Positions 10,044-46,541 of a stretch of 64,000 nucleotides of DNA are shown here, piece by piece. The stretch comes from Candidatus Lokiarchaeum ossiferum (GTDB lineage: Archaea > Asgardarchaeota > Lokiarchaeia > Sigyniarchaeales > Promethearchaeaceae): the NCBI GenBank assembly GCA_025839675.1, contig CP104013.1:2849121-2913120 (forward strand), in the 5' to 3' direction. Positions within the stretch are counted from its first letter, which is position 1. Every line of letters starts with the position of its first letter. A program made the position numbers and the translations under genes. The notes beneath the pieces are model-generated. The model ran no database searches. It saw nothing but the letters and a program-made list of their open reading frames with translations, and was not told the origin of the DNA.

Positions 10044-10247
10044 ATATTTAAAACCCAATTTGAGTAATTTTATAGAAATCTGATCTTCTTTGTTAATTCC
10101 AAAATAAAAAGTTGAACATTTTAAAAAAAAATACGGAGAGTATGTATTTTTTGTTAAGATCTGGTAAAAAAAACCATTAAAAACATCTAAAAAAGACCAA
10201 ATTACGTAAATTTTTTTCAAATGCAAAATTAATAACAATGAGTTTTA

Positions 10248-21783: not shown

Positions 21784-22123
21784 AATGACAGAAGAAAAAT
21801 GGAAATCTATTAATAAATGTCGAGACGACCGTCCAGAAATACAATGTTGGGATAATTATTGGGAATTACCTCCCGCTTCAGTCTCGTTCCCCATAAAGGG
21901 AAGTGCTGGAAAAACTGGAGCTTGGCGAACTTTTCGACCTGTAATTGATCAAGAACAATGTATCAAGTGCTACTTCTGTTTCATGTATTGTCCTGAAGGG
22001 ACGATCAAAGTTAATGATGAAACCAAAGAAGTATATGTCGACTATGAATATTGTAAAGGATGCGGAGTATGTGCAAATAATTGCCCAAAGAAATGCATCG
22101 ACATGAAAAAGGAGTCAAATTAG
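21767..22123 (+). CDS. porD: Pyruvate:ferredoxin oxidoreductase delta subunit (2x[4Fe-4S] ferredoxin)
   Basis: CIKCYFCFMYCP and CKGCGVCANNCP motifs; overlaps the porG stop. Confidence 0.8.
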   Translation: MWSCDKMTEEKWKSINKCRDDRPEIQCWDNYWELPPASVSFPIKGSAGKTGAWRTFRPVIDQEQCIKCYFCFMYCPEGTIKVNDETKEVYVDYEYCKGCGVCANNCPKKCIDMKKESN

Positions 22124-22133
22124 GTGAAATATT

Positions 22134-23426
22134 ATGGTATTTAAAGAAGGTCCATTAAAAGGAAATTTAGCCGCAGCATATGCGGCTATGGATGCAGATA
22201 TCGATTGTGTGACTGCATATCCAATTACCCCTCAAACAACTGTTGTTGAAAAACTGAGTGAATTGGTCGGAGAAAAAGAATTTCTTGACCGAGGGCAAAA
22301 AGTTGAATATATTCGAATGGAATCGGAACACTCTGTTGGAGCAGGATTGGTTGGAGCAGCATTTGCAGGAGCTCGAACTTATTCCGCAACAGCGGGACAA
22401 GGACTTCTCTATATGTCCGAGATGGTCCATTGGATGGTGGGTGCACGTATTCCCGTAGTACTTTCAATCGCTGCTCGTGCATTAACTGGTGGAGGATGGA
22501 ATATTTGGGCAGATTATGGAGACATTATGAACCAGCGAGATTCTGGGATTTTAATTCAATTTTTAAGCTCCCATCAAGAAATATATGATACAATCTTAAT
22601 GAGTTATAACATTGCCGAACATCCTGATGTAATGCTTCCGCTTTTCCCCGCCTATGGTGGCTTTGTTTTAAGTCACACCGCGAAACCCGTGAAACGAATA
22701 TCTTGGGAAGAAGCACAACAATTTGTGCGCCCAAAAACCGAAGAATGGCCACACATTTGGGTTGATGGAGATCGCCCTATTATGAGTGGTGCCATGATTA
22801 TGCCGCAAACTTATGCGGAATTCCGGATTAAAGCTCAAGAAGCACAATTACGGGCTAAACCAGTCATAAAACAAGTGATGGCCGATTTTAAAGCCAAATT
22901 TGGGAGAAGTTATGGAAATGGAATGGTCGAACCTTATATGACCGATGATGCCGAAGTTCTGTTAATTGGCTACGGGGGCATTGCCAAACAAGCCGAAGAT
23001 GCAGTGGACGCAGCCCGAAAAATGGGATTAAAAGTAGGAGCTTTACGCATTCGCACCTATCGACCGTTCCCAACTGAAGATATTTTATCGTATATTAGAC
23101 GGATTCCCGTTGTCGGAGTCGTTGATCGAGCCATTGCTTTTGGAAATCCAACCGCCAGTCCAGTGTGTACTGATATCATGGCAGTATGTCAACGAGATCC
23201 TGAAGCCAAAAATGCCCACATAATCCCCTTTGTTGCGGGTATAGGTGGACGCGATACTACATTTGATCAACAAATGGAACAAATCAAAATATTATTTGAA
23301 TATAAGGACACCGGTGTGGAACCAGCCCGTAAACATAAGATGTTTGGCACCTATTGGACCGGATTGATGACTGGAGAAGGCGAAAAGCCCGCAGACTTTT
23401 CAGAACCTTACTTTGGAGATATATAG
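22134..23426 (+). CDS. porA: Pyruvate:ferredoxin oxidoreductase alpha subunit
   Basis: 430 aa with a 2-oxoacid:ferredoxin oxidoreductase alpha domain. Immediately follows porD. Confidence 0.85.
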   Translation: MVFKEGPLKGNLAAAYAAMDADIDCVTAYPITPQTTVVEKLSELVGEKEFLDRGQKVEYIRMESEHSVGAGLVGAAFAGARTYSATAGQGLLYMSEMVHWMVGARIPVVLSIAARALTGGGWNIWADYGDIMNQRDSGILIQFLSSHQEIYDTILMSYNIAEHPDVMLPLFPAYGGFVLSHTAKPVKRISWEEAQQFVRPKTEEWPHIWVDGDRPIMSGAMIMPQTYAEFRIKAQEAQLRAKPVIKQVMADFKAKFGRSYGNGMVEPYMTDDAEVLLIGYGGIAKQAEDAVDAARKMGLKVGALRIRTYRPFPTEDILSYIRRIPVVGVVDRAIAFGNPTASPVCTDIMAVCQRDPEAKNAHIIPFVAGIGGRDTTFDQQMEQIKILFEYKDTGVEPARKHKMFGTYWTGLMTGEGEKPADFSEPYFGDI

Positions 23427-23437
23427 GAGAGATTAAC

Positions 23438-24376
23438 ATGGCAAAATCAAAAATAAAAGATTTAATCAATATTCCCGAAGCTCGACGCGAATATTTCCTT
23501 GCTGGTAATTCAACCTGCCAAGGCTGTGGATTAGACATGGCCCTCCGCTGGGCCATGAAAGCTCTGGGACAATATACCGTTACTATTTCCCCCGCCAGCT
23601 GCAGCAATGTTGTCACTGGAGTGTGGCCCAAATCCGCCCCTGATTGGCCTTGGTTTAACATGGCTTTTGCAGGTGCAACCGCTGCCGCTACGGGTATGAA
23701 ACATGGTTTGATCACGAAAGGTAAAGGCCACTACAATGTTGTGGTTTGGGCCGGCGATGGAGGCACTACCGATATTGGCCTTCAAGGATTAAGTGGCGCC
23801 GCTGAGCGCAACGAAGACATCATTTATGTCTGTTATGACAATGAAGCCTACCAGAATACCGGAAATCAAAGAAGTAGTTCGACCCCTCATGGAGTTGTTA
23901 CAACAACAACACCTTATGGAAAAGAACAACACAAGAAAAATTTGCCCATGATCGTGGCAGCCCATAATGTCCCTTATGTTGCGACAGCTTCCGTGTCAGA
24001 TCCAATGGATTTGTATGATAAATTTAAAAAAGCCAAGGACATCAAAGGATTCCGCTATATTCAAATTTTGAGCCCCTGCCCTCCAGGATGGCGCTCAGAA
24101 GCGAAGGATACAATTCAACATGCGCAGATGGCTATTGATTGCGGCATTTTCCCACTCTATGAGATAGAAAATGGGAAGTTGACTTTAAACGGTAAAAGTG
24201 TACGAATGCATGACAAAACCAAGCGCAAGCCCTTGGGAGAATATTTCAATAAGAAGAACCAAGGACGCTTCAAAAAGGTGGATGAAGAAGTCTTGAAAGT
24301 ATTACAAGAAGACACTGACAAGTGGTGGGCGTGGATCGATCGTCACTTAGTGTATCAAGAAGAAGCCGAATTGTAA
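23438..24376 (+). CDS. porB: Pyruvate:ferredoxin oxidoreductase beta subunit (TPP-binding)
   Basis: Start chosen at the ATG after an AGGAGA RBS; the track ORF starts earlier at 23354, inside porA. Motifs GNSTCQGCG and GDGG for TPP binding. Confidence 0.85.
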   Translation: MAKSKIKDLINIPEARREYFLAGNSTCQGCGLDMALRWAMKALGQYTVTISPASCSNVVTGVWPKSAPDWPWFNMAFAGATAAATGMKHGLITKGKGHYNVVVWAGDGGTTDIGLQGLSGAAERNEDIIYVCYDNEAYQNTGNQRSSSTPHGVVTTTTPYGKEQHKKNLPMIVAAHNVPYVATASVSDPMDLYDKFKKAKDIKGFRYIQILSPCPPGWRSEAKDTIQHAQMAIDCGIFPLYEIENGKLTLNGKSVRMHDKTKRKPLGEYFNKKNQGRFKKVDEEVLKVLQEDTDKWWAWIDRHLVYQEEAEL

Positions 24377-30920: not shown

Positions 30921-32264
30921 ATGAGTGATGATAAGAATAAACCTACAACCGAAGAGGATGCACCAACTAAATCGCCTTTACTTTCAGCAGAGAAAGCAGA
31001 AGTTGCGAAAAAAGTCATTGTAAAGTCAATTCTTTGGATAACTATGCTCGGATTATTTGTAACCGTAATCGGAGGCATTTGGGCAATTGGAGATATATTT
31101 TCTCAAGAGAAATTCTCAAATTTCACAGAATTAACAATTCAATCACAGTTATTTATAACTGGTTTAATATTGTTAGGTATTTTCTTCTTAGTTCTGTTTT
31201 TAGTTGTGCTGTATAAGCGTGGAAAGAAGAATTTAATGGAAAGTCTTTTCAAGGAAGCTCCAGAAAAAGAAGTGAAAACTGCAGATGAGTATTTACCTGC
31301 AAAAATAATTACTGCAGGTGCTTTAATTTCATTTTTCACAATATTTGTTGGTTTAATAGTCGCATTTCTTATGTTTTTAATTGATGCAACAGTTTTTACT
31401 GACGAGTTAGGTTTTTGGAGTTTCATGAGAGAATTAACCGGAGGTTCCATAGTTTTGATAATTGGACTAATTGTTCTTCTCTTAGATGGGTTAATATATG
31501 GTATGATTTATATTTGGCAAAATGGATATTATCTTCTAATCAACAAAATCCTACGTTATAACCAGAAAGTAGAAGAAATTCATGATTTTTCAAAGAATGA
31601 ACGGATTACAGGCAAAATTGTTTTTGGAATATTGGTTTTGATTCTTGTTGGAATCGTATTTGGTATTGTGTGGACTATAATTGAATCATTTTCAAGCGAT
31701 TGGGGAACGACATTCCGTGAAGATTATATCTTTGGGGTTCAATTATCAATAATTGGATTTTTTGGAACTCTATCATTTGGAACCATGATATCAGCTATGT
31801 TTATCTATAAATGGGGGAACAATGTGATTATGAAAGCACTTTTTATCCAATATACCCCTAAAGCTACTACTGAAGATAACCTTCCAGCTAAAATTCTCGC
31901 AGTTGGGATATTAATCGCCATCGTTTTACTTGCTTCATCTCTGATCATTTGGATAATCACTTTGATCATCGATGCCTTAAGTTCTGGAAGCGGAGAAAAT
32001 ATTTTTGCAGCACTGGCTGCTTTGAGTGGAGGGTTGGCTTTACTTGCATATTCACTCATTACCGAAATATTTGTGATTTTAATACTGCTTTTTATTTTCT
32101 TCCTCCATAATGGTTACGCTTTCACTCTTCTAAAAATAATGAAAACAGAATCAATTATTGATTCTGGATTAGAAGAAAGCAAAATTCGAGCTCAAGAAAA
32201 GAAACAACAGCGTTTGAAGAAACGGGAAGAGAAGAAAACAGAAAAAAAGCCCTCTAAAAAGTAA
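30921..32264 (+). CDS. Polytopic membrane protein with an internally duplicated module and a Lys-rich C-terminal tail
   Basis: About 10 TM helices. Internal repeat EYLPAKIITAGALISFF...LIDA versus DNLPAKILAVGILIAIV...IIDA. C-terminus KKQQRLKKREEKKTEKKPSKK. Confidence 0.5.
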   Translation: MSDDKNKPTTEEDAPTKSPLLSAEKAEVAKKVIVKSILWITMLGLFVTVIGGIWAIGDIFSQEKFSNFTELTIQSQLFITGLILLGIFFLVLFLVVLYKRGKKNLMESLFKEAPEKEVKTADEYLPAKIITAGALISFFTIFVGLIVAFLMFLIDATVFTDELGFWSFMRELTGGSIVLIIGLIVLLLDGLIYGMIYIWQNGYYLLINKILRYNQKVEEIHDFSKNERITGKIVFGILVLILVGIVFGIVWTIIESFSSDWGTTFREDYIFGVQLSIIGFFGTLSFGTMISAMFIYKWGNNVIMKALFIQYTPKATTEDNLPAKILAVGILIAIVLLASSLIIWIITLIIDALSSGSGENIFAALAALSGGLALLAYSLITEIFVILILLFIFFLHNGYAFTLLKIMKTESIIDSGLEESKIRAQEKKQQRLKKREEKKTEKKPSKK

Positions 32265-32505: not shown

Positions 32506-33654
32506 GTGATAATAATGAGTGACCCACGAAAAACACCTCTTTCAGCCATGCATGAAAAACTAGGGGGAAAGATGGTTGATTTTGAAAACTGGTATATGCC
32601 AGTTAAATTTGATGGAACAAGTGTCAGTGATGAACACTTATGGACTCGTGAACATTGTGGAATCTTTGATATTTGCCACATGACCGAATTCATGCTTGAA
32701 GGTCCAGATTGCATTCCATATCTAAAACATATGATGTCAAATAGTATAAATATTGTTGATAATCAAGCACAATACCAACATATGTGCTATCCAGAGGGAG
32801 GCGTTGTCGACGATTTATACATCTACCGAGAATCTGCAGAAAAATTCCGAATCATTGCCAATGCTCAAACATATGAAACCGAAGGAAAAGATTTCAATTG
32901 GTTAACTGAACATATTGAGAACTTCAAAGTATCTTTGGAAGATTTATCTCTTAAACGAGCAAGATTTGCCGTTCAAGGGAAAGAAACAATAAAACTATTA
33001 AATCCATTGACCGATGTAGATTTATATCCTATGAAACGTTTTAGATGGACCTATGCCAATCTTAAAACATCCGAGGGAGATATCCCAATATTTTGTTCAC
33101 GAACAGGATATACTGGAGTAGATAATAATAAAACTGGTGAGGAAGCAATTGCCTCCTACGAAATATCTTGTGATGCTAAATTTGCTGAACTCCTATACCA
33201 AACATTCCTAGATATGGGAGCAAAACCTATAGGTTTAGGAGCGCGCGATTCATTACGATTGGAATGTTGTTTTGCACTTTATGGCAATGATATCAATCGA
33301 AATATCACTTCTATTGAAGCTAATCTTGGTTGGGTTGTTAAACCGAAGGAGGACGCTCATTTTATTGGTGAAGAGGTGTTATTGAAACAAAAAAGTGAAG
33401 GAACTGCACGAATAAGTGTAGGGTTAAATTTAGTTGGTAAAGGTATTTTGCGGGATGGATATAAGATTTTTGCAGGTTCAAATGAAATCGGTTTTATCAC
33501 ATCTGGGGCTTATGGACCAAGTGTTGGCAAAACGATTGCCCTTGCATTAATTAAAAAAGAATATTCTAAAGTTGGAACAGAATTAGAAGTAGAAATTCGA
33601 TCCAAACGGAAAAAAGTGGTAGTTGTTACAACTCCATTTTGGAAACAAGAATAA
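32506..33654 (+). CDS. gcvT: Glycine cleavage system T protein (aminomethyltransferase)
   Basis: 382 aa with GcvT fold landmarks. First gene of the gcvT-H-PA-PB cluster. The true start may be the ATG at 32515. Confidence 0.85.
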   Translation: MIIMSDPRKTPLSAMHEKLGGKMVDFENWYMPVKFDGTSVSDEHLWTREHCGIFDICHMTEFMLEGPDCIPYLKHMMSNSINIVDNQAQYQHMCYPEGGVVDDLYIYRESAEKFRIIANAQTYETEGKDFNWLTEHIENFKVSLEDLSLKRARFAVQGKETIKLLNPLTDVDLYPMKRFRWTYANLKTSEGDIPIFCSRTGYTGVDNNKTGEEAIASYEISCDAKFAELLYQTFLDMGAKPIGLGARDSLRLECCFALYGNDINRNITSIEANLGWVVKPKEDAHFIGEEVLLKQKSEGTARISVGLNLVGKGILRDGYKIFAGSNEIGFITSGAYGPSVGKTIALALIKKEYSKVGTELEVEIRSKRKKVVVVTTPFWKQE

Positions 33655-33753: not shown

Positions 33754-34140
33754 GTGAATTACATGGTTAACATCCCAGAAGATTTAAAATATGCTGAAAC
33801 CCACGAATGGGTGAAAGTTGAAGGCGATATCGCCATTGTCGGAATTTCAGACCACGCTCAAGACCAATTAGGTGAAATAGTATTTGCTGAATTACCTGAA
33901 GTCGGAGATAATGCAACTGCCGGAGAAGGAATTTGCAATTTAGAATCTGCTAAAGCTGTTGGTGAAATCAAAGCACCAATTTCTGGAGAAGTCATCGAAG
34001 TGAATGAAGATCTTGATGATGAACCAGAAAAAGTCAACTCAGATTGTTATGGTGAAGGTTTCCTTTACAAATGCAAAATTGCTGATGCTGGTGAATTAGA
34101 CAAGCTTTTAGATGCAGCTGCCTATAAAGGTACACTTTAA
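33754..34140 (+). CDS. gcvH: Glycine cleavage system H protein (lipoyl carrier)
   Basis: Lipoyl-lysine motif ESAKAVGEI and typical length (about 125 aa). Confidence 0.85.
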   Translation: MNYMVNIPEDLKYAETHEWVKVEGDIAIVGISDHAQDQLGEIVFAELPEVGDNATAGEGICNLESAKAVGEIKAPISGEVIEVNEDLDDEPEKVNSDCYGEGFLYKCKIADAGELDKLLDAAAYKGTL

Positions 34141-34235: not shown

Positions 34236-35552
34236 TTGGATTACGTTCCCCATGATAAAAAAACAATGGAAACCATGCTAGCCAAAATTGGCGTATCAAG
34301 TATGGAAGAATTGTACGAAGACATTCCTAAAAGTTTACTTTTAGAGAAATTAAATTTACCCGAAGGTTTATCTGAAGCAGATCTATTAAAAAGAATGACT
34401 GTTTTATCAAAAAAGAACCACTTATATCGAACCGCCTTTATTGGAGCAGGATCTTATTATCATTTTATCCCAAGTTTAGTGGATTATGTCATAAGTAGAA
34501 GCGAATTTTTTACCGCTTACACCCCCTATCAAGCAGAAGCATCACAAGGATTTCTCCAAGCGATTTATGAATACCAATCCGCAATAACCCGCCTAACTAA
34601 AATGGATGTGACCAATGCATCAATGTATGATGTTGCAAGTGCTTTTGCAGAAGCAGCAACCATGTGTACTTTTGCGACACGCAAATCTAGAATTTTAATG
34701 CTTGAAGGAATGCATCCAGAATACATTGAAACGGTGAATACTTATTGCTGGGGTCGAAATATTCAGACTGAAATAGTACCCTTAACCAAATTGGAAGAAT
34801 CTCTCAATGATGATTGTGCAGGATTTCTCTTTCAGAGCCCTAATTTTTATGGAGAAATCGAAGATATTTCTTATTTAACAAAAATTGTTCGGGAAAAAGC
34901 AAAAAAATGTAAGATTGTTTATGGAATGCCAGATCCAACTTGTTTAGGTATATTGAAAGCACCTGGAGATTATGATATTGATATTTTTGTATCAGAAGGG
35001 ATGGGTCTTCCACCATCTTTTGGAGGACCAAATCTTGGAATCTTTGCTACAACTTCAAAATTGATGCGAAAAATGCCCGGTCGTGTTATTGGTGTCACAA
35101 AAGAAATTAATGGAGAAGGAGAAGGATTTGTTCTCACCCTACAAGCAAGAGAACAGCATATCCGGCGAGAAAAAGCACTTTCCAATATTTGTTCCAATCA
35201 ATCGTTGTGTATGCTGGCTTGCCTAGTATACATGGTTTGTTTAGGAAAAACAGGGTTGAAGCAAGTTGGAACCCAAAATATTCAAAAAGCAAATTATGTA
35301 AAGCGGGAAATGGCAAAAATTCCAGGATACAACCTTAAGGAATCACGGGCTACGTACAATGAATTTGTCATTGAATGCCCTAATGTAGATAAGTTCATAG
35401 GAAAATGTAAAGAAAATGATATATTACCTCCATTACCTCTTTCTCATTATTTTCCAGAACGATCTTCAGAAGTTTTAGTATGTGTTACTGAACAAAATTC
35501 AAAAGAAGATATTGAACTCTTCCTACGGGTTGCTAAGGAGGCAGCCCTTTAA
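34236..35552 (+). CDS. gcvPA: Glycine dehydrogenase (decarboxylating) subunit 1
   Basis: 438 aa. N-terminal half of split P-protein (archaeal/Firmicute-type split). Confidence 0.85.
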   Translation: MDYVPHDKKTMETMLAKIGVSSMEELYEDIPKSLLLEKLNLPEGLSEADLLKRMTVLSKKNHLYRTAFIGAGSYYHFIPSLVDYVISRSEFFTAYTPYQAEASQGFLQAIYEYQSAITRLTKMDVTNASMYDVASAFAEAATMCTFATRKSRILMLEGMHPEYIETVNTYCWGRNIQTEIVPLTKLEESLNDDCAGFLFQSPNFYGEIEDISYLTKIVREKAKKCKIVYGMPDPTCLGILKAPGDYDIDIFVSEGMGLPPSFGGPNLGIFATTSKLMRKMPGRVIGVTKEINGEGEGFVLTLQAREQHIRREKALSNICSNQSLCMLACLVYMVCLGKTGLKQVGTQNIQKANYVKREMAKIPGYNLKESRATYNEFVIECPNVDKFIGKCKENDILPPLPLSHYFPERSSEVLVCVTEQNSKEDIELFLRVAKEAAL

Positions 35553-35557
35553 GAAAG

Positions 35558-37000
35558 GTGATTATTATGAATAAAATTCAACTCATTTTTGAAAAGGGGT
35601 ATGAAACCACAAAAAATAACTTCGTACCTCAAATGGATATCGACGAAATTCCATTAACAGAATTACTCACTTCAGATAACTTACGGACTGATGAAATAAA
35701 TATTCCAGATATCCCTGAATTTGAAATTGTTCGCCATTTTACAAATTTAAGTCAAAAAAATTATGCAGTGGATTCAGGCATCTATCCTTTAGGTTCCTGT
35801 ACTATGAAATATAATCCACGGATAAATGAAAAAACGGCTCGTTTACCTCACTTTGCAAATATTCATCCCCTCCAAGAAGAGAATGAAGGGGCAATTGAGT
35901 TGATCTATAATTTAGGAAAGGATCTTTGCGAAATTTGTGGTATGGATGCATTTACTTTGAATCCTGCTGCAGGTGCACAAGGAGAACTCACAGGAATCCT
36001 CATTTTCAAAAAATATTTTGAAGTAAGGGGCGAAAAGAAAACAAAAATCATTGTACCTGACAGCGCTCATGGAACTAACCCTGCAAGTTCAGTAATGGCA
36101 GGTTTTGACATCATTGAAATTAAATCTGATGAAAATGGTGAACTTCCTTTGGATCAACTGGAATTTGCGATGCAGGAAGGGGATGTGGCGGGCTTGATGC
36201 TTACAAATCCTAACACTGTAGGGATGTTTGATAGAAATATTCTTCAAATTACGGAGATTGTGCATAAATATGGAGGGCTTTGCTATTATGATGGCGCAAA
36301 TTTAAACCCAATTCTTGGAATGTGCCGCCCAGGAGATATGGGATTTGATATCATCCATTTGAACCTACATAAAACCTTTTCCACACCTCATGGCGGCGGT
36401 GGCCCCGGAGCTGGACCAGTTGGAGTAAAAGCAGATTTAATTCCTTATCTCCCATGTCCACAAGTGATCTCTACTGAAAAAGGGTTAGCTTGCATGGACA
36501 ATGAGGAAACTACGATTGGGCGTTTACGAAGTTTTTGGGGAAATTTTGGTGTTTTGGTGAGGGCTTATACCTATATTTTAGCATTAGGGGCAGAAGGATT
36601 AAGACGGGCGGGTCAAAATGCAGTTTTAAATGCAAACTACCTCAGAGTTTCACTCCATGAGAAATATGCCGTACCTTATGACCGAATTTGTATGCATGAA
36701 TTTGTAATAGATGCCCATCTTCCAAATGGTGTAAATGCCGAAGATGTTGCTAAGGCACTTTTAGATCGTAAATTATATGCTCCCACTTCTTATTTTCCAT
36801 TGATAGTTCATGAAGCATTGATGGTAGAACCTACAGAAACGGAAAATAAACGTGAATTAGACCGATTCATTGAAGCCATGCTCGAAATATATGAAGAAAC
36901 TATAAATAATCCAGAGCATCTCAAATCGGGCCCACATAATTTGGATGTTGGGAGATTGGATGCTACGTTAGCTGCTCGAAAACCCCATCTAAAAGATTAA
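35558..37000 (+). CDS. gcvPB: Glycine dehydrogenase (decarboxylating) subunit 2, PLP-binding
   Basis: PLP-lysine region HLNLHKTFSTPHGGGGPG; follows gcvPA by 5 nt. Confidence 0.85.
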   Translation: MIIMNKIQLIFEKGYETTKNNFVPQMDIDEIPLTELLTSDNLRTDEINIPDIPEFEIVRHFTNLSQKNYAVDSGIYPLGSCTMKYNPRINEKTARLPHFANIHPLQEENEGAIELIYNLGKDLCEICGMDAFTLNPAAGAQGELTGILIFKKYFEVRGEKKTKIIVPDSAHGTNPASSVMAGFDIIEIKSDENGELPLDQLEFAMQEGDVAGLMLTNPNTVGMFDRNILQITEIVHKYGGLCYYDGANLNPILGMCRPGDMGFDIIHLNLHKTFSTPHGGGGPGAGPVGVKADLIPYLPCPQVISTEKGLACMDNEETTIGRLRSFWGNFGVLVRAYTYILALGAEGLRRAGQNAVLNANYLRVSLHEKYAVPYDRICMHEFVIDAHLPNGVNAEDVAKALLDRKLYAPTSYFPLIVHEALMVEPTETENKRELDRFIEAMLEIYEETINNPEHLKSGPHNLDVGRLDATLAARKPHLKD

Positions 37001-37030
37001 CACTTTTTCTTTTCTTTTTTTCCTAATTTA
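37001..37030 (+). terminator. T-rich tract after gcvPB, oligo-T terminator candidate
   Basis: cactttttcttttctttttttcc after the stop. Confidence 0.25.
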
Positions 37031-37087
37031 TATTGATAGTTTTACTCTAAAATCACACTTTTTTTTAAGCATGAATTAATCATTTTA

Positions 37088-37903
37088 TTGATAACTTTGA
37101 AGAGTGATACTTCCGGGATAGTATTCGATATCAAGAAATTTGCTATCCATGATGGCCCAGGAATAAGAACAACAGTATTTTTCAAAGGATGTCCTTTAAA
37201 ATGTGAATGGTGCCACAATCCCGAAAGTCAGAAACATGAAATAGAACATATCTTAAAAAATCCTATTGACTCTCTTCATAACGATAATTCTTACGAGCAG
37301 ATTGGAAAAAAGATTAGATCTCTTGATTTAATTGATGAAATTAAGAAAGACGTATTATTTTACGATGAATCGGATGGAGGAGTTACCTTTTCAGGGGGGG
37401 ATCCTCTATCTCAACATGAATTTCTGAAATCTTGTCTTCAATTGTGCAAAGAAAATGAAATTCACACAGCTCTTGACACCGCAGGTTATCTTTCTTGGTC
37501 AAAACTCAAAGAAATTATTCCATTAGTTGATTTGGTTTTATACGATCTCAAATTTGTTGATGAACCGAAGCATAAAAAATATACTGGTGTATCAAACAAA
37601 TTGATACTCGAAAATTTGTCCAACCTTTCGGCCATGAACAAGGCAGTTTGGATAAGAATTCCAATAATTCCCACTCTTAATGATACAGAAGATGAAATTC
37701 ACCAAATGATAAACTTTATCTCACGATTAAATAATATCGGGAGCATTGATCTCTTGCCCTTTCATAAAATAGGTAAAAATAAATATCAACGTCTAAACCT
37801 TCCATATAAAATGGAAAATTTTTTTGAACCATCACTTGATAGAATGGAAGAATTAAAAAGAAAATTTGAGACCCTAAATATTCCTGTTAAAATTGGAGGT
37901 TAA
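37088..37903 (+). CDS. Glycyl-radical enzyme activating enzyme (radical SAM; PFL-AE family)
   Basis: N-terminal FAIHDGPGIRTTVFFKGCPLKCEWCHNPES (CxxxCxxC). Likely TTG start. The stop lies 6 nt before the glycyl radical enzyme gene. Confidence 0.8.
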   Translation: MITLKSDTSGIVFDIKKFAIHDGPGIRTTVFFKGCPLKCEWCHNPESQKHEIEHILKNPIDSLHNDNSYEQIGKKIRSLDLIDEIKKDVLFYDESDGGVTFSGGDPLSQHEFLKSCLQLCKENEIHTALDTAGYLSWSKLKEIIPLVDLVLYDLKFVDEPKHKKYTGVSNKLILENLSNLSAMNKAVWIRIPIIPTLNDTEDEIHQMINFISRLNNIGSIDLLPFHKIGKNKYQRLNLPYKMENFFEPSLDRMEELKRKFETLNIPVKIGG

Positions 37904-37909
37904 AATTAT

Positions 37910-40273
37910 ATGAATCAACGAATTCAAGCATTGAGAACTCAAAGTCGTACCGCTATCCCAACATTATCTCTTGAACGAGCAAAATTGATGACAGAATTTT
38001 ATAAATCTGGAGCAGGACACAAATTAAGCCCTCCTATGGCAAGAGCAGAATCTTTTAAATATCTTATGCAAAATAAGACAATTTGTATTAATCCAGGGGA
38101 ATTAATAGTAGGAGAACGAGGGCCCAGCCCAAAAGCAACATCGACTTATCCTGAAATTTGTTGCCATACTCTTCAAGATTTGGAAATTTTAAATAATCGG
38201 GAGAAAATATCTTTCAAGGTGACAGATGAAGATAAGAAATTAACTACATCGACCGTACTCCCCTTTTGGAAAAATCGATCAATTCGTGATAAAATTTTTG
38301 CACAGGTGGATCCTGAATGGATTGAAGCTTATGATGCAGGAGTTTTTACAGAATTTATGGAACAGAGGGCTCCAGGCCATACAGTCGCAGGGAAACAATT
38401 ATTTACCAAAGGATTTTTGGATTTCAAAGAGGATATCAAGGAGAGTATAGCAAATTTAGATTTCTTTAATGATGCCGAAGCCTTTGCAAAGCGAGAACAA
38501 TTACAAGCAATGAATATTGCTGCAGATGCAATTATAATTTATGCCAAACGCCATTCAGATCTAGCTCGATCATTAGCTAACACAGAAGTAAATCCCACTC
38601 GAAAATCTGAACTTTTAAAAATTGCCGCAACTTGTGATTATGTTCCAGCTCATGCACCAAGGACCATGTGGGAAGCCTTACAACATTATTGGTTTGTTCA
38701 TTTAGGTGTTATAACTGAATTAAGTACTTGGGATTCATTCAATCCAGGAAGATTAGATCAACACCTCATTCCATTTTATCGGATGGAAATCTCAAAGGGT
38801 ACCCTTACAAAAGAGTTTGCAAAGGAATTACTCCAAGCTTTCTGGGTGAAGTTTAATAACCAACCAGCACCCCCAAAGGTGGGAGTTACCGCTGAAGAAT
38901 CTAACACATATACAGATTTTTGCAACATTAATGTGGGGGGACTTAAGGAGGATGGTTCAGATGGAGTAAATGAACTCTCTTATATGATTTTAGATGTAAT
39001 TGAAGAGATGCGTTTGCTCCAACCGAGCTCAAATGTGCAGATTAGTAAAAAGACACCAAATCGTTTTCTCAATCGAACTTTAGAAATCTTGAAAACGGGA
39101 TTTGGACAACCTTCGATATTTAATACGGATGCAATAATCCAAGAATTAACACGGCAAGGAAAAGACATAATCGATGCTAGAAATGGTGGAGCAAGTGGAT
39201 GTGTTGAAATTGGTGCTTTTGGTAAGGAGGCTTATATTCTAACAGGATATTTCAACCTTGTTAAAATTTTAGAAATAACATTGCATAATGGGACTGATCC
39301 ACGTACGGGAAAACAAATTGGAATTCAAACCGGAAATCCTCAAGATTTTTCTACATTTGACATATTTATGAAAGCTTTTGAGAAGCAGGTGAAACATTTT
39401 GTGGATATAAAAATCAAAGGCAATATGGTGATTGAACAATTATGGGCTCAAAATCTTCCAGCAGTCTTTATGTCTATATTCGTTGATGATTGTATAAAAA
39501 CCGGAAAGGATTATAATGCGGGTGGTGCCCATTACAATACATCCTATATTCAAATTGTTGGTATGGGGTCCATAACAGATTCACTTGCTTCAATCAAACA
39601 TCATATTTTTGATAAGCAGACACTTTCAATAGAAGAAATGATTAGTATTTTGGATTCTAATTTTGTACAGAATGAAAAATTGCAGCAAGATTTTCTTCTA
39701 AATACTCCAAAATATGGGCAAGATGATGAATATGCAGATGATATTCTTCATGATGTTTTTGAAATCGTATATAATTCCATAAATGGGAGACCGAATTCAA
39801 AAGGGGGTGTTCATCGTATTAATTTGCTCCCCACAACTGTTCATGTTTATTTTGGCTCAGTTATAGGAGCGACTCCAGATGGGAGATTCGCAAGCAGGCC
39901 ACTTTCAGAAGGAATTTCTCCCGTGCAGGGAACTGATATCAAAGGACCAACAGCTGTCTTAAAGTCTGCAGGTAAAATTGATCATCTTAGAACAGGTGGA
40001 ACCTTACTGAATCAAAAATTCACGCCAAGCCTAATGAAAGATGAAAGTGGCATCAAAAAAGTTGCACATTTAGTACGAAGCTACTTCAAAATGGATGGGC
40101 ATCACATTCAATTCAATGTGGTTTCTGCTGAAACTCTTCGCGCTGCTCAAAAAAATCCTCAAGATTTTCGAAATTTAATAGTTCGAGTCGCTGGTTACAG
40201 CGATTACTTCGTTAATCTTGGTTCAGATTTACAAGAAGAAATAATTAAACGAACAGAACATAAAGAATTCTAA
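37910..40273 (+). CDS. Glycyl radical enzyme, dehydratase/lyase (1,2-eliminase) subclass
   Basis: 787 aa. C-terminal glycyl radical motif VRVAGYSDYF (Gly codon 40193-40195). Active-site GCVE (Cys 39200-39202, Glu 39206-39208) instead of the Cys-Cys pair of pyruvate formate-lyase. Confidence 0.85.
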   Translation: MNQRIQALRTQSRTAIPTLSLERAKLMTEFYKSGAGHKLSPPMARAESFKYLMQNKTICINPGELIVGERGPSPKATSTYPEICCHTLQDLEILNNREKISFKVTDEDKKLTTSTVLPFWKNRSIRDKIFAQVDPEWIEAYDAGVFTEFMEQRAPGHTVAGKQLFTKGFLDFKEDIKESIANLDFFNDAEAFAKREQLQAMNIAADAIIIYAKRHSDLARSLANTEVNPTRKSELLKIAATCDYVPAHAPRTMWEALQHYWFVHLGVITELSTWDSFNPGRLDQHLIPFYRMEISKGTLTKEFAKELLQAFWVKFNNQPAPPKVGVTAEESNTYTDFCNINVGGLKEDGSDGVNELSYMILDVIEEMRLLQPSSNVQISKKTPNRFLNRTLEILKTGFGQPSIFNTDAIIQELTRQGKDIIDARNGGASGCVEIGAFGKEAYILTGYFNLVKILEITLHNGTDPRTGKQIGIQTGNPQDFSTFDIFMKAFEKQVKHFVDIKIKGNMVIEQLWAQNLPAVFMSIFVDDCIKTGKDYNAGGAHYNTSYIQIVGMGSITDSLASIKHHIFDKQTLSIEEMISILDSNFVQNEKLQQDFLLNTPKYGQDDEYADDILHDVFEIVYNSINGRPNSKGGVHRINLLPTTVHVYFGSVIGATPDGRFASRPLSEGISPVQGTDIKGPTAVLKSAGKIDHLRTGGTLLNQKFTPSLMKDESGIKKVAHLVRSYFKMDGHHIQFNVVSAETLRAAQKNPQDFRNLIVRVAGYSDYFVNLGSDLQEEIIKRTEHKEF

Positions 40274-40423: not shown

Positions 40424-41557
40424 ATGGCAGAAAACAAATTAGATCTTGCATATTTAGAAAAATTATGTAATGCATTTGGCCCTTCCGGTCACGAACGTGA
40501 AGTTCAAAAAATGGTTTTAAACTACGGTAAGCCCCTAGCGGATGAAGTTTTATTTGATAAAACTGGATCAGTTATTTTCAAACGCGGAACTTCGGGTCCT
40601 AAAATCATGCTTGCTGGACATGCTGATGAAATTGGCTATCTTGTTCAAAGTATTGAAAAAAATGGATTTCTAAAAATCTCCAATCTGGGAGGTATTTTTC
40701 CAGGAAACTTGATTGGTCATGAAATTCTTATCCGACCATTCAAAGGGGGGGAAAAAATCATTGGAATCACCACCAATGGTTCTTTAGCTGGGCCACATAA
40801 AGACAAAATTCCTAAATTGAGTGATCTTTTTGTTGATATTGGATGCGCTACTGATGAAGAAGTGAAGGAATTGGGAATTCGAGTTGGAGATCCTGCCGTT
40901 CCTTACGCAGTATATCGATCTTTAACCCGAAAACGAAAGGAAAAGAAAAAAGATGCCAAACCTGATGAAGAACCAGAGATAAAGGAAGCACGTTTGGCAG
41001 TAGCAAAAGCATTTGACGATCGGATAGGTGTGTTTATGGCACTTGAAGTAATGCGACGATTGTCTGATGATCACATTTCCCATCCCAATATTGTTTATGC
41101 CGCATCCACAACCCAAGAAGAAGTGGGATGTAGAGGAGCTCGAACAGCTGCACAATTAATTCAACCAGATATTGGATTTTCACTTGATGTAACTATTTGC
41201 GGAGGAGGACCAGGAGCAAAGTCTATTGAACAAAAAATGGGGAAAGGCGTTGCTGTAGGAGTTTATGATAGTTCTATGATTGCAAATCCAGTTTTCCGAA
41301 GGTTTGTTATGGAACTTGCAGAAGAAAAGGGTATTCCTTGTCAAACAGGATTTTTAAATAGAGGGGGAACTGATGCAGGACAGATACATCTTTCTGGAAT
41401 TGGAGCACCATCGTTATTTTTCGGTATTCCAACCCGTTATGTGCATTCCCATCATGCAATGTTAGATTTAGATGATGTTGAAGGCGCCATTCAACTATTA
41501 ATCGAGTTAATTAAAAAATTGGATGAAAAAACTGTTGCTAGTTTTACCACTTTATAA
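40424..41557 (+). CDS. M42 family aminopeptidase (TET/FrvX-like)
   Basis: MLAGHADEIGYLV metal-binding motif and M42 length. Contains an unusual Lys/Glu-rich insertion (RKRKEKKKDAKPDEEPEIKE). Confidence 0.8.
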   Translation: MAENKLDLAYLEKLCNAFGPSGHEREVQKMVLNYGKPLADEVLFDKTGSVIFKRGTSGPKIMLAGHADEIGYLVQSIEKNGFLKISNLGGIFPGNLIGHEILIRPFKGGEKIIGITTNGSLAGPHKDKIPKLSDLFVDIGCATDEEVKELGIRVGDPAVPYAVYRSLTRKRKEKKKDAKPDEEPEIKEARLAVAKAFDDRIGVFMALEVMRRLSDDHISHPNIVYAASTTQEEVGCRGARTAAQLIQPDIGFSLDVTICGGGPGAKSIEQKMGKGVAVGVYDSSMIANPVFRRFVMELAEEKGIPCQTGFLNRGGTDAGQIHLSGIGAPSLFFGIPTRYVHSHHAMLDLDDVEGAIQLLIELIKKLDEKTVASFTTL

Positions 41558-41594: not shown

Positions 41595-43229
41595 TCAAAA
41601 TTCATTTTGATCTGTCGATATTTGAGACAAAATTTTAATCAATTTCAAATTAGGGGTCGAAAGTAGATACTTATACAACCGATTTTGAGGATAAATCATA
41701 CAATATTTGGAATTTTTTAAATCACGTAAAAAATTCAAAATGAATCGGGTTGAGAAAAACTTAGCGGAATGAAGGTCAAAAATCATGTTCCTTACGAAAG
41801 ATTTTGTCAAAGTATCTGAAAAACAGACTATTGAAGAAATAAAACCATATTTTTTACTTAACAAGTTTTTGATTTGAGGTAAGTAAGATTGTTCTTCAGA
41901 AGAATGAGAAGTATCCAAGCTTTCAAGAGTTAGAGAATTCGAATCGATTTTGGTTACTTCTTCTAAAACACCTTGTGAAAATCTCAATAAAACCAATGAA
42001 AACTCTGAAAGATCAAATCTCGAGGAAAATTTGGCTAAGTTTTGTACATTATTCCCTAAAATAAGGAGGATTTTCCCCTCAGAACCTATTTGGTGAATCA
42101 TTGCATTATTTAGTAATGATGGAATTGCCCAAAAGGCAATTTTTCTTGGATTAATAGTCAAATTTCGAGCATACTTTGAATATCGGAAAAGTTCTCGCAA
42201 AATTTTAGGTTTGGGATAGCAATTCCAATCTGTCCCATAATTTTTGTAACAGGATAACATTTTCTCTCCTAACAAATTCCATCGATCTTTGGTAGAAGGA
42301 AAGGGCGTTTGAAAGAGATCTTCTAAATATTGGACAATAGATTTGACTTGAAACATGAAATTAAAAGAAGTATGGTAGGATTTCTTTAAATATTTCATAA
42401 TTTTTGCATCCCTTTCAACAAAATCTTCACAAGATAATATTGTTTCTGGAATTTTACATGGAGTTATTATGAAGCGACTATACCGCTTAATTAATTTCAA
42501 AGCAAAATAATAGTCTGATCCTTTGAAAGTAAGAGAAAATGATTCATTCGGTGCCAAAGTTTCAATATACCGATAGAATGACTCATATTTAAAATTTCCA
42601 AAAAATTGATGACTTGAGGTTAAGAAATCTAGTCCCACAGATTTTGGAAAATATAAAAATTGATTTTGGCTTTGTGCATCAATTAGTCGATCTATAAAAT
42701 AACCCATCAAAGCAAAAATACTGCACGCTGGAGAAGATGTTTCATTATTTCCGGATTTTTCAACAAATTTTTCCAAAAGAGTTTCAGAGATAACATGAAT
42801 ATTTCCGAGATCGCTCCCAAATTTTTTTTTTATAAAAGGTGTTAATTTTTCAAAGGTTGTTTCAAGATGATAAATTGCATCTTCTTCCAAGGATAACTCC
42901 TTAACATCCAAAGTTACCATTTCTTTAACCATATTAAATTGGTTGACTGTATGAAGATATGCGCGTAAAATGACACCATTTGTATCCACAACAAATTCTA
43001 TCGATACTGGGTTCTGGTTCAAAAAGAGAGCATAGAAATCAGCCCATAATTTATGAAATAAGATCGAATTCGTCTCTAATTCAAGAAATGGCAGTTTTAT
43101 CACAATGTTGGATAGAATTTGAACCTTGGAATATTCTTGTGCAGTTGATAAATGCTTATGCCAAGTAACAAAGTACTCATGTATTTTTTTTTGAAGATTT
43201 TTTGATTTTATCGAATCTATTTTACTCAT
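41595..43229 (-). CDS. Hypothetical protein (544 aa) with no recognisable domain; last gene of the rSAM/DUF362 cluster
   Basis: Long clean ORF overlapping the upstream gene by 8 nt. No motif recognised. Confidence 0.5.
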   Translation of the reverse strand: MSKIDSIKSKNLQKKIHEYFVTWHKHLSTAQEYSKVQILSNIVIKLPFLELETNSILFHKLWADFYALFLNQNPVSIEFVVDTNGVILRAYLHTVNQFNMVKEMVTLDVKELSLEEDAIYHLETTFEKLTPFIKKKFGSDLGNIHVISETLLEKFVEKSGNNETSSPACSIFALMGYFIDRLIDAQSQNQFLYFPKSVGLDFLTSSHQFFGNFKYESFYRYIETLAPNESFSLTFKGSDYYFALKLIKRYSRFIITPCKIPETILSCEDFVERDAKIMKYLKKSYHTSFNFMFQVKSIVQYLEDLFQTPFPSTKDRWNLLGEKMLSCYKNYGTDWNCYPKPKILRELFRYSKYARNLTINPRKIAFWAIPSLLNNAMIHQIGSEGKILLILGNNVQNLAKFSSRFDLSEFSLVLLRFSQGVLEEVTKIDSNSLTLESLDTSHSSEEQSYLPQIKNLLSKKYGFISSIVCFSDTLTKSFVRNMIFDLHSAKFFSTRFILNFLRDLKNSKYCMIYPQNRLYKYLLSTPNLKLIKILSQISTDQNEF

Positions 43230-45156
43230 TTGACTTTTCTCCTTCCGGTTTTTCTTCTTGAGTATCTTTAGAAACTGATTCTGGTAAAAGAACTGATTCG
43301 GATCTTAGGGATTTTTGTTTTGAGTAGTTTTTTTTTTCAATTTTCAGGTTATCAATTTGAGGTTGAAACTTAGGTTTCAGTTCTTCCAATGCATTCTTTC
43401 GATTCTGTTTGTACTTCTGAATTTGCTCTTTATATGTTTGTTTAGCAAGTTTAAGCTCAGATTTAATCTGAGGTAATATTGGACGATTTATCTCGGTGAT
43501 TTTTGCCTTTAATTTAGATCTTTGTTGTTTTTGCTGAATCGTTCTTTCCTTTTTATCAAATTCTATAAAATTATAGACCGTTTTCATACTATCCAAAAAT
43601 GTAGTAAGCGTCGGGATCATCTTGGAAGGGATGAAATTTGCGATTGTCAGCATATTCTGTAAACCTATTGGTTGATAATTAGAAAGTTCCACTACTTTAG
43701 AATTTAAAACAACATCAGGTGCTTTGTTTTGAATTCGTAACTTTTCGTGTTTATATGATAGATCGAGACGGATCCTTTCTAATTTGTAATGAAAACTTAT
43801 AGTTGATTTTTCTAACTTCTTTTTCTTTTTCAATTTTAGGAGTTTTAGAGAAGGAGTCTGCTCTTTTTCTTCAATCATTGATATTTGATGATCAATTTTG
43901 GACTGAAATAATTCATTTTTTCTTCTTAATTTTGCCTGTTTTCCAATAATTGCTCGTTCTAACTCATCCCCATCCAAAATTCGAGTGACTCCAGTTTCAA
44001 AACCAAGAATTTCAAGAGGTTCTTTTAAAGAACTTTTAAGAATTGAGCGAAATGCATAATCTTGAGTCGATTGAATTGCAGAGTTCCCAAATACTACAAT
44101 ATATTCTTTACCCGTAAAATTCGGTTCTGGAGGATTTTCTCCTGCAAGTAAGATCCAATCTCCAACATTATAAAGATCTTTGAATAAAATTGTTTGAAAT
44201 CGTAAGAGTAGGAGGTAGAGTGTGTGATGATCGGCAACACTCAGATTTCCAAGATGAAGGGAAAGTCCAGGAAGCTTAAAAAGGTTTAAATCTTTTGGAA
44301 TAGGCTTGATATCGAGTTTTGCGATATTTTCAGGAGTTTTTACCACATTATTTCCTGAAGATGCGAATTTTTCTTCATTTATTTGTTTTAAGAAGGGATT
44401 TTGCTTAGGATCAAACCCTAAATCAATTAATGTTTCCCAATCCAACGTTAAACAATCATTTCCAAAATAAACCCGATGTAAATGTGTTGTTTTAATTCTC
44501 TTTCCTATACATGGCCCATTCTGTTCTATAATGGAAAATCCATCGTTAATAAAAAGTAAGGGTTTTTCTTTAGATAAACTTTGAGAGGGGCGATCAATCC
44601 ATTCTTGATAAGTCTCAGGGGATTTACTTGTATTTGAATTGCTAAAAACCGAGAATAGAGGAAGAGATGCCCAAAATCCGAATAAAGGATCTTGCTTAAG
44701 CTGGGATAAAAGAACAATTGAATCAATTTGTGAAAAGAGAGAAAGATTTGGTTCGTTTATTACCTCACTTGGCTCAAGGGTTGGATCTGTCTCACCATCA
44801 AGATTTTGGGAAATTTTTTGATCGAAAACATCTGATCTATCAACCAAAATTGCATTATGGTGGTTTATCCAAGTTTTTAACCCATAATTTGAGAGAAGAG
44901 CATCAGAACTATAGCCATTGAAAACAACAGGAAGCACATAGATTTCAGATATTCCTCGAGATTTTAAGAAATTTATTAGAACAACTAGAGAATCGGGATT
45001 GAAGGATACAGGAAAAGGTTGTGGAATCAACATATCAACTACAATTAAAACCTTACCCTTACTTGGAATAAAACCTCCTTTTTGCTCTAAAAGTCTCAAT
45101 CCATCAATTATGGTTTTTTCGAGTGAATTATTTTCTGAGATAATTGTGATGCCCAT
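43222..45156 (-). CDS. DUF362-domain protein with a long Lys-rich coiled-coil C-terminal extension (644 aa)
   Basis: N-terminal DUF362 landmarks: ITIISENNSLEKTIIDGLRLL...KGKVLIVVDM... and INDGFSIIEQNGPCIG (like vvDGivgMEGnGP). The C-terminal roughly 250 aa are heptad-like and K/E/Q-rich. Confidence 0.5.
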   Translation of the reverse strand: MGITIISENNSLEKTIIDGLRLLEQKGGFIPSKGKVLIVVDMLIPQPFPVSFNPDSLVVLINFLKSRGISEIYVLPVVFNGYSSDALLSNYGLKTWINHHNAILVDRSDVFDQKISQNLDGETDPTLEPSEVINEPNLSLFSQIDSIVLLSQLKQDPLFGFWASLPLFSVFSNSNTSKSPETYQEWIDRPSQSLSKEKPLLFINDGFSIIEQNGPCIGKRIKTTHLHRVYFGNDCLTLDWETLIDLGFDPKQNPFLKQINEEKFASSGNNVVKTPENIAKLDIKPIPKDLNLFKLPGLSLHLGNLSVADHHTLYLLLLRFQTILFKDLYNVGDWILLAGENPPEPNFTGKEYIVVFGNSAIQSTQDYAFRSILKSSLKEPLEILGFETGVTRILDGDELERAIIGKQAKLRRKNELFQSKIDHQISMIEEKEQTPSLKLLKLKKKKKLEKSTISFHYKLERIRLDLSYKHEKLRIQNKAPDVVLNSKVVELSNYQPIGLQNMLTIANFIPSKMIPTLTTFLDSMKTVYNFIEFDKKERTIQQKQQRSKLKAKITEINRPILPQIKSELKLAKQTYKEQIQKYKQNRKNALEELKPKFQPQIDNLKIEKKNYSKQKSLRSESVLLPESVSKDTQEEKPEGEKSNE

Positions 45157-45239: not shown

Positions 45240-46541
45240 TTACTTTTGATCATATCGAGTTTTAACTAATCCCGCTTGCGCTTGATATTCGCCATAAGCT
45301 TTACCTGCTTTTGCCAATTTTCCAATAATATGTGAAATTCTAGGATCAATAATTCCTGGATTTTCATTTTCAAAAGGTGTCCCAGGGAGAGGCATAAAAG
45401 TATGGGTATGAATGCGGACATTTTTCACCTTGTTAGTCAGAACTTGATTAAAAAATGAAATATTCGCTTGAATATCTTCCTCAATCTCACCAGGTAACCC
45501 AAAAATGAAATCAATTTCTGCACCTATCCCAAATTCATCCATAAGATCGACAGCGGTGATGACATCTTCGATGTTATGTCCCCTTGCTATTGATTTCAAG
45601 AGACGATTGGAAGCAGTTTGAGCCCCAATCAATAATTTTCGATTTGTCATTAAAGGTGTGACAATTTCCAGCATTTCCCGAGTTACAGATTCAGGCCTAA
45701 CTTCACTTGGAAAAGTACCAAAATATATGCCTTTAATAGAATTTTTTTGCGAAATTCCAGTTAGTAATTCTTGTACCGCTTCTATGTTTGGTGTAATTCC
45801 ATTTGGAGAACCGTATGCAAATGCGTTGGGTGTTAAAAACCATACTTTATCAAATTTTATTTCGGACGCTCTTTTAACATTTTGAAGAATGGTTTGAATG
45901 GGAACATGTCGCATTTTATTTGAGGAACACCCTGTTTGACAAAATTTGCATCGATAAGGACATCCTCGAGAAATTTCAATGGGTCCAAAGAGACGGAATT
46001 TCTCTGAAAATGAGGGAGTGACCCCTAATTCAATAATTTTTGCAGGTAATCCAGGTGAATATTGAGGTTTCAGTTGGATCACCCCATTTAGCATAGGATA
46101 GTTAAGGAGATCTTGTGAAGCATTATATAAAGTATGTAATAATTGAGAAAATCCAATTTCACCTTCCCCTGGAATAAGGAAATCAACATTAAGGTTTTGA
46201 AATTCTTGAGGTGATGCCGTTACATGAGGACCTCCTGCCACCGTAAAGATTTTTGGATGAAATTGGTTGAAAAAATATGGAGTGGATTTACTAAACTCTT
46301 TAAATTGATTCATTTGAATTGACAACAACGAAAAAGCTAGAACTACAAAATCATAGTTTTGAAATGGAATTTCCTTAATTTTTGAAGAATGTTGAGGAGA
46401 TTTATAAAGTTGAAACGGTAAAGCAATAAAATCGTAGTTTTCCATCAGCTGGGAATTATTTTCTAAATATCCCATCAAAATGCTCCATGAATACCGGTTT
46501 GGTTTGTCATACCCAAATAATACCAATCCTTTCTTGATCAC
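45240..46541 (-). CDS. B12-binding-domain radical SAM protein (archaeal MJ_1487-like family)
   Basis: N-terminal Rossmann-like B12-binding region, then the radical SAM core ISRGCPYRCKFCQ (CxxxCxxC); 433 aa. Confidence 0.7.
   Translation of the reverse strand: MIKKGLVLFGYDKPNRYSWSILMGYLENNSQLMENYDFIALPFQLYKSPQHSSKIKEIPFQNYDFVVLAFSLLSIQMNQFKEFSKSTPYFFNQFHPKIFTVAGGPHVTASPQEFQNLNVDFLIPGEGEIGFSQLLHTLYNASQDLLNYPMLNGVIQLKPQYSPGLPAKIIELGVTPSFSEKFRLFGPIEISRGCPYRCKFCQTGCSSNKMRHVPIQTILQNVKRASEIKFDKVWFLTPNAFAYGSPNGITPNIEAVQELLTGISQKNSIKGIYFGTFPSEVRPESVTREMLEIVTPLMTNRKLLIGAQTASNRLLKSIARGHNIEDVITAVDLMDEFGIGAEIDFIFGLPGEIEEDIQANISFFNQVLTNKVKNVRIHTHTFMPLPGTPFENENPGIIDPRISHIIGKLAKAGKAYGEYQAQAGLVKTRYDQK

Follow-up and report, generated by a model that had tools for sequence, protein, structure and literature searches.

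The closest described system to the one reported here is trans-4-hydroxy-L-proline dehydratase (HypD) of C. difficile (PDB 6VXC/6VXE; Levin 2017, Backman 2020), a glycyl radical enzyme in which the roles of individual residues in hydroxyproline (Hyp) binding and catalysis have been assigned by structure and mutagenesis (Backman et al. 2020, PMC7077986). The gene for its activating enzyme lies immediately upstream of hypD, and in Clostridia proC, which codes for delta-1-pyrroline-5-carboxylate (P5C) reductase, is commonly found next to hypD. HypD has also been reported from several archaeal genomes, where it forms a clade of its own (Huang et al. 2018), so its presence in archaea is already known. 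The present study deals with a gene pair at positions 37088 to 40273 of a 64,000-nucleotide stretch of the Asgard archaeon Candidatus Lokiarchaeum ossiferum (contig CP104013.1, positions 2,849,121 to 2,913,120 of the forward strand), which is referred to as the window. No paper discussing this gene in L. ossiferum was found in the literature. Our data indicate, with a probability of about 0.87, that the pair encodes HypD and its activating enzyme. The gene order is that of C. difficile, whereas the host is archaeal. The two genes are as follows.

37088-37903, + strand, radical SAM (S-adenosylmethionine) activase gene, 271 amino acids, TTG start
37910-40273, + strand, glycyl radical enzyme (hypD) gene, 787 amino acids, ATG start

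The activase gene is the upstream member of the pair and is separated from the enzyme gene by 6 nt. Its reading frame contains a second in-frame TTG at 37097. The listing of open reading frames (ORFs) showed no competing ORF of at least 80 amino acids on either strand inside 37088-40273.

The enzyme scored 1303.1 bits against the NCBIfam equivalog model of HypD (NF043068), for which the cut-off is 1100, and the match ran from residue 2 to 785 of the protein and from position 1 to 783 of the 784 positions of the model. In a search of solved structures the best match was C. difficile HypD (6vxc), with 1054 bits over residues 3-784 and a single gap of one residue. The runner-up, glycerol dehydratase, reached 513 bits, about half of the HypD score, and the structures of other glycyl radical enzymes acting on hydroxyproline compounds reached 486 (HpyG, 8id1), 468 (HpzG, 8iof) and 441 bits (HplG, 7vua). 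The other Cys-x-Glu eliminases (glycerol and propanediol dehydratase, CutC, HpyG, HpzG and HplG) have the same fold, glycyl radical motif and Cys-x-Glu loop as the window enzyme, but they score only 441-513 bits, as against 1054 for HypD. Among the NCBIfam families the next after HypD were TIGR01774 (the subfamily of PFL2 and glycerol dehydratase) with 662 bits, sulfopropanediol dehydratase with 565 bits, which is below its cut-off of 1000, and CutC with 496 bits; all families other than HypD stayed well short of their cut-offs. In Pfam the protein matched PFL-like (734 bits) and Gly_radical (125 bits). It should be noted here that the enzyme matches, at 100% identity, a Candidatus Lokiarchaeum ossiferum protein deposited as "Choline trimethylamine-lyase" (database cluster P0001), and that many of its Asgard orthologs carry the name trans-4-hydroxy-L-proline dehydratase in the NCBI annotation.

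A sequence-only reading of this DNA had proposed a Cys-x-Glu eliminase with its cognate activase, distinct from pyruvate formate-lyase (PFL), and these parts of it were borne out. The glycyl radical motif RVAGYSDYF is present at residues 759-767, with Gly762 as the radical site, and the single Cys of the GCVE loop lies within SGCVE at residues 429-433, where Cys431 is the thiyl site; the Glu of the Cys-x-Glu motif is Glu433. Gly762 aligns with Gly765 of 6vxc, and Cys431 and Glu433 align with its catalytic Cys434 and Glu436; throughout, a residue number of the window enzyme is that of C. difficile HypD minus 3. The residues F152, R156, H160, W277, D278, K326, S334, D339, F340, Y450 and T645 of C. 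difficile HypD (PMC7077986) have their counterparts in the Hyp-binding set Phe149, Arg153, His157, Trp274, Asp275, Lys323, Ser331, Asp336, Phe337, Tyr447 and Thr642. All 14 catalytic and Hyp-binding residues are present in the alignment to C. difficile HypD, so the two enzymes share the Gly loop, the Cys-Val-Glu loop and the residues that hold the substrate. The same 14 positions are invariant across 80 aligned sequences, namely those of 78 fetched loci, the window protein and C. difficile HypD. The HypD-specific residues Asp278, Asp339 and Ser334 of C. difficile are not conserved in other Cys-x-Glu eliminases (PMC7077986), and the counterparts of all of them are found in the window enzyme. 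The protein falls in the characterised HypD clade and not with PFL/TdcE. The sequence-only reading had regarded the substrate as unknown. Since the HypD equivalog threshold is exceeded, the HypD structure is the best match and the 14 residues are retained, the substrate can be predicted. The family is well characterised, the enzyme is an ordinary ortholog, and its enzymology offers for the most part nothing fundamentally new.

From the characterised C. difficile system we infer how the window pair would work. The single [4Fe-4S] cluster of the activase would reductively cleave S-adenosylmethionine, and the resulting 5'-deoxyadenosyl radical would remove a hydrogen from HypD at Gly762. From there the radical would move to Cys431, and the Cys431 thiyl radical would take a hydrogen from hydroxyproline at C5. 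Loss of the C4 hydroxyl as water would be assisted by Asp275, His157 and Glu433. The hydrogen would finally be handed back to C4, giving P5C as the product. The P5C could be reduced to proline, which would serve as an electron sink, or it could be oxidised to glutamate.

The predicted product of 37088-37903 is a HypD-activating enzyme of a short variant, as suggested by its pairing with hypD and by its best family match. It carries the radical SAM motif CX3CX2C as CPLKCEWC at residues 35-42 and matches Radical_SAM and Fer4_12 in Pfam. It scores 289.6 bits against the glycyl-radical activase subfamily TIGR02494, for which the cut-off is 174, and its best equivalog is the HypD activase T4HPD_activ_SAM (NF043069). 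The linker from CX3CX2C to GGVTFSGGD is 57 residues long and has no Cys. Long-form activases have in this place a ferredoxin-like insert of 80-94 residues with 7-9 Cys. The HypD activases of long form from the sampled Bacillota loci (for example that of Clostridium thermobutyricum, L063) are of this kind and carry an insert with about 8 Cys, which the window activase does not have. When activases adjacent to hypD were compared, the window's included, 39 of 65 were short, 25 were long and 1 was truncated. All the archaeal ones are short, together with those of Calditrichota, Ignavibacteria and Bacteroidota; the loci with the short form include L004, L005, L011, L012, L023, L025, L027 and L052 and about 30 bacterial loci. 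The window activase shares 43% identity with long-form HypD activases and 47-54% with short-form ones. In a crude neighbour-joining tree the hypD genes that go with short activases form one group, and the Asgard clade is nested inside it. Only the activases of PFL and of class III ribonucleotide reductase are named in a 2026 review as being without the ferredoxin-like domain, and an earlier review on microcompartments describes GRM5 activases which do not have it either. As the latter were already known, the short HypD activase is a modest variant and not a first of its kind.

For comparison, the 80 best species-representative hypD loci were fetched, in which the relatives of the enzyme are 63-74% identical to it. 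The 51 window proteins from ORFs of at least 100 amino acids were searched against these loci by tblastn, and an activase homolog was found in 66 of the 80. Nineteen of the loci are archaeal; most of these are Asgard, one is labelled Bathyarchaeia and one is labelled Nanoarchaeota. Among the 120 best database clusters the organism names were all Asgard lineages or the marine-sediment metagenome that first yielded Lokiarchaeota, and Asgard orthologs 70-76% identical to the window enzyme occur in clusters of Promethearchaeota and of Hermod-, Hod-, Odin-, Thor- and Heimdallarchaeota. The sequence-only reading had called glycyl radical enzymes rare in archaea, which is therefore untrue for Asgard archaea. 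Within the Asgard HypD clade the sequences cluster in the neighbour-joining tree, and the adjacent activase, where there is one, has the same short form. Other than the activase there is no conserved neighbour of hypD in the Asgard loci. About ten of them (L002, L003, L006-L010, L013 and L017) have no adjacent activase, and in these it must come from a gene at another place or be shared. Upstream of hypD in the same loci there is an acyl-CoA synthetase-like gene, an ABC transporter-like pair or a tryptophanase-like gene, as assigned by eye.

The bacterial loci with short activases (Calditrichota, Ignavibacteria, Bacteroidota) encode HypDs that are 64-70% identical to the window enzyme. In the neighbour-joining tree no other bacterial HypDs stand closer to the Asgard clade. 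The activases of these loci likewise have a Cys-poor linker, of 45-61 amino acids. Xaa-Pro peptidases (M24B with an AMP_N domain) are frequent neighbours of bacterial hypD, with 21 copies in 18 loci. Genes of the proline racemase family and those for proline dehydrogenase and ornithine cyclodeaminase/mu-crystallin were also found, as well as EamA transporters and, assigned by eye, GntR regulators and M16 peptidases. These neighbours from proline and Hyp metabolism support a role in the use of Hyp or proline-containing peptides for the whole sequence cluster. The short-activase bacterial loci usually contain a gene for an Xaa-Pro peptidase, a proline racemase-family protein, proline dehydrogenase, an ornithine cyclodeaminase-family protein or EamA transporters, and none of these adjoins hypD in the window.

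Several observations weigh against the assignment of the pair to Hyp metabolism. The activase reached 334 bits against the HypD-activase equivalog, for which the cut-off is 425, and matched it in two stretches that skip the insert; the low score follows from the absence of the ferredoxin-like insert. No gene for P5C reductase, P5C dehydrogenase or another proline-metabolising enzyme was found among the 49 window ORFs of at least 100 amino acids that were scanned with Pfam and/or NCBIfam. The Asgard isolate MK-D1 failed to grow with L-hydroxyproline at 1 mM, and according to the 2026 review all PFL-like glycyl radical enzymes characterised so far are bacterial. If Hyp is an electron acceptor or a co-substrate, absence of growth on Hyp as the sole substrate is also expected. 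The species description of MK-D1, which gives the growth result, says that L-hydroxyproline had earlier been postulated as an energy source on the basis of the genome. A Hyp epimerase was likewise not found among the 49 scanned ORFs. In contrast to Clostridia, no P5C reductase gene is adjacent to hypD in the window. A search for microcompartment shell genes gave no match among the scanned ORFs of at least 100 amino acids, smaller ORFs outside 30-46 kb being unscanned; within about 8 kb of the enzyme the spacers are too short for a hidden shell gene, and no further ORF of at least 80 amino acids is present at 30-46 kb. A four-subunit 2-oxoacid:ferredoxin oxidoreductase is encoded at 21100-24376 (+). 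It was considered as a route between glutamate and 2-oxoglutarate and was rejected, as its type is pyruvate/2-ketoisovalerate and it is 13 kb distant (21.1-24.4 kb). Homologous sets of four genes occur directly upstream of activase-hypD in L041, L045, L070 and L078, which are labelled as metagenome-assembled genomes (MAGs) of uncultured Eubacteriales, and a fifth bacterial hypD locus matches two of the four oxidoreductase subunits.

In L. ossiferum the pair stands behind the genes of the glycine-cleavage system (gcv) and in front of a peptidase gene.

32506-33654, + strand, gcvT, above its NCBIfam equivalog cut-off
33754-34140, + strand, gcvH, above its NCBIfam equivalog cut-off
34236-35552, + strand, gcvPA, above its NCBIfam equivalog cut-off
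35558-37000, + strand, gcvPB, above its NCBIfam equivalog cut-off
37001-37087, + strand, spacer of 87 nt from gcvPB to the activase gene
40424-41557, + strand, M42-family aminopeptidase gene (Pfam Peptidase_M42, 268 bits), 150 nt 3' of hypD

The sequence-only reading had placed the enzyme and its activase after gcvPB, on the same strand and behind an 87-nt spacer. The strand and the spacer were confirmed and the order was corrected, as the activase precedes the enzyme. It had further taken the pair as fused to the glycine-cleavage operon, and of this only the adjacency remains. By tblastn, neither a gcv gene nor a homolog of the M42 peptidase was found near hypD in the 80 species-representative loci. 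The three closest metagenomic relatives, with about 75% identity, have unrelated genes next to hypD and no gcv. As the linkage of gcv and hypD occurs in none of these 83 other loci, it is private to this lineage, and among the Asgard loci examined gcv genes stand beside hypD only in L. ossiferum. Most likely the position beside the gcv genes is incidental, or at most a lineage-specific arrangement. The G+C content of the activase and hypD genes is 0.36-0.37 and matches that of the rest of the window; recent horizontal transfer was considered and, in the absence of any anomaly in G+C, was rejected. No RNA genes were found in the window by Rfam or ARAGORN.

It is unlikely, but conceivable, that activase and hypD form one functional unit with the gcv genes on one side and the M42 peptidase gene on the other. 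Such a unit would serve for peptides rich in glycine and Hyp, like those of collagen, or as a Stickland-like redox pair in which the cleavage system oxidises glycine and thereby supplies the NAD(P)H for reducing Hyp-derived P5C to proline. The seven genes stand in tandem on one strand with spacers of 5-150 nt, and the 87-nt spacer is no longer than those within the gcv cluster. Peptidases are present nearby (M42 at 40424 and M20 at 7171), the former of which could release free amino acids from peptides, and Hyp has served as an electron acceptor in sediment enrichments. Against such a unit, homologs of the gcv genes and of the M42 peptidase are missing within 10 kb of hypD in all of the 80 loci and in the three nearest relatives, and P5C reductase was not found in the 64-kb window. 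The spacer at 37001-37087 has an oligo-T tract directly after the gcvPB stop and a box TTTATAT at about 37028-37034, about 55 nt before the activase start. These signals also speak against a unit, being compatible with a putative archaeal terminator and promoter, but they are non-diagnostic. Comparable T-runs and TATA-like A/T boxes occur in the gcvT-gcvH (99 nt) and gcvH-gcvPA (95 nt) spacers, and since the spacers within the gcv cluster look alike in a genome of 35% G+C, the sequence alone cannot define transcription units. A coupling of gcv and hypD of the collagen or the Stickland-like type is possible but unsupported.

A wider proposal can be made, although it is quite improbable. Hyp derived from eukaryotes may serve Asgard archaea not as a growth substrate but as an internal acceptor of electrons, being converted by way of P5C to proline, and L. 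ossiferum would have placed hypD deliberately behind gcv so that glycine oxidation and Hyp reduction form a Stickland-like couple. If this is true, these archaea would depend less on partners that scavenge hydrogen or formate, and the failure of MK-D1 to grow on Hyp alone would be explained.

It is very improbable that the enzyme is a HypD-like eliminase acting on a related substrate, such as a different hydroxyproline isomer, a hydroxyproline with an N-methyl group or a compound that contains Hyp, and not on free trans-4-hydroxy-L-proline. The MK-D1 result and the absence of an adjacent proC, unlike in Clostridia, would fit such a substrate, and the sister enzymes HplG, HpyG and HpzG are known to act on other hydroxyproline derivatives. 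However, the scores of these three are less than half that of HypD, the curated HypD equivalog threshold is exceeded, and all 14 of the substrate-contacting and catalytic residues are identical to those of C. difficile HypD. The non-growth of MK-D1 is, moreover, expected as well if Hyp is an electron acceptor or co-substrate.

There is next to no chance that the enzyme is a choline trimethylamine-lyase, as the source record says, an alkyl- or benzylsuccinate synthase, as Zhang et al. 2021 read related Asgard enzymes at 29-33% identity (PMC8163825), or a PFL, and these assignments are already refuted by the family cut-offs: the CutC model TIGR04394 gave 495.7 bits against a cut-off of 1050 and solved CutC structures 410-462 bits against 1054 for HypD, the PFL model TIGR01255 gave 109.3 bits against 994 and the loop has a single Cys and no Cys-Cys pair, the succinate synthases MasD and TutD (benzylsuccinate synthase) scored 282 and 251 bits against the same 1054 with no small-subunit ORFs between or beside the genes, and the Cys-x-Glu motif and the Hyp-specific residues are present. 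With a CutC score so far below its cut-off, the deposited name choline trimethylamine-lyase is wrong.

The enzymes described by Zhang et al. 2021 were looked at as well. In their supplementary sequences (PMC8163825), Heimdallarchaeota OLS32298 shares 67% identity with the window enzyme and keeps 14 of the 14 HypD active-site residues; the database that they built for their searches lists it as "benzylsuccinate synthase alpha subunit". Hermodarchaeota h02m.52@k127_1722569_10 and Thorarchaeota TFH10284 are 57% and 58% identical to it, each with 13 of the 14. In the latter two Thr replaces the Glu of the Cys-x-Glu motif (CVT), and they represent an uncharacterised HypD paralog outside the window. 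The three sequences are HypD-like and not succinate synthases. An origin of the Hermodarchaeota HypD clusters P0023, P0052 and P0066 in the bins of the same study was considered and set aside, as their accessions belong to newer MAGs.

Some other genes of the window may be mentioned. Directly upstream of gcvT, at 30921-32264 (+), there is a gene for a protein of 447 amino acids that has about 11 hydrophobic segments and matches no family in Pfam or NCBIfam; it may be an uncharacterised transporter. On the other strand two overlapping ORFs, 41595-43229 (-) of 544 amino acids and 43222-45156 (-) of 644 amino acids, have neither a Pfam or NCBIfam family nor hydrophobic segments. The gene for a B12-binding radical SAM protein, 45240-46541 (-), lies immediately upstream of them on the same strand, and the three may form an uncharacterised unit. 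The gene for methylenetetrahydrofolate reductase (MTHFR) at 8441-9373 (-) stands beside one for an MTHFR C-terminal (DUF5981) protein at 9357-10238 (-), which fits with one-carbon units coming from the glycine-cleavage system 23 kb away. Eukaryote-like domains occur in a ZPR1 jelly-roll protein, 20327-20950 (-), and in a HEAT-repeat protein of 1193 amino acids, 57187-60768 (+), in keeping with an Asgard genome.

The assignment of the pair to HypD and its activase corrects the annotation of one of the few cultured Asgard archaea from choline trimethylamine-lyase to hydroxyproline dehydratase, and it shows HypD to be widespread across Asgard lineages. It also cautions against reading closely related glycyl radical enzymes of Asgard archaea as succinate synthases that activate hydrocarbons. 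Activases that have auxiliary clusters and activases that do not have them both serve HypD, and this natural series could help in testing the role of the ferredoxin-like domain; if the present activase functions as predicted, it would show that auxiliary clusters are dispensable for the activation of an eliminase-type glycyl radical enzyme. The useful outputs of the study are the corrected annotation, the short-activase variant and the idea of Hyp as a co-substrate. For an Asgard archaeon that ferments peptides and amino acids, the enzyme would give access to Hyp from collagen-like proteins or from Hyp-rich proteins of plants and algae. Since Hyp comes mostly from eukaryotic proteins, this leads to a testable prediction for cultivation and ecology, that Hyp or Hyp peptides could be used as a co-substrate or as an electron sink.

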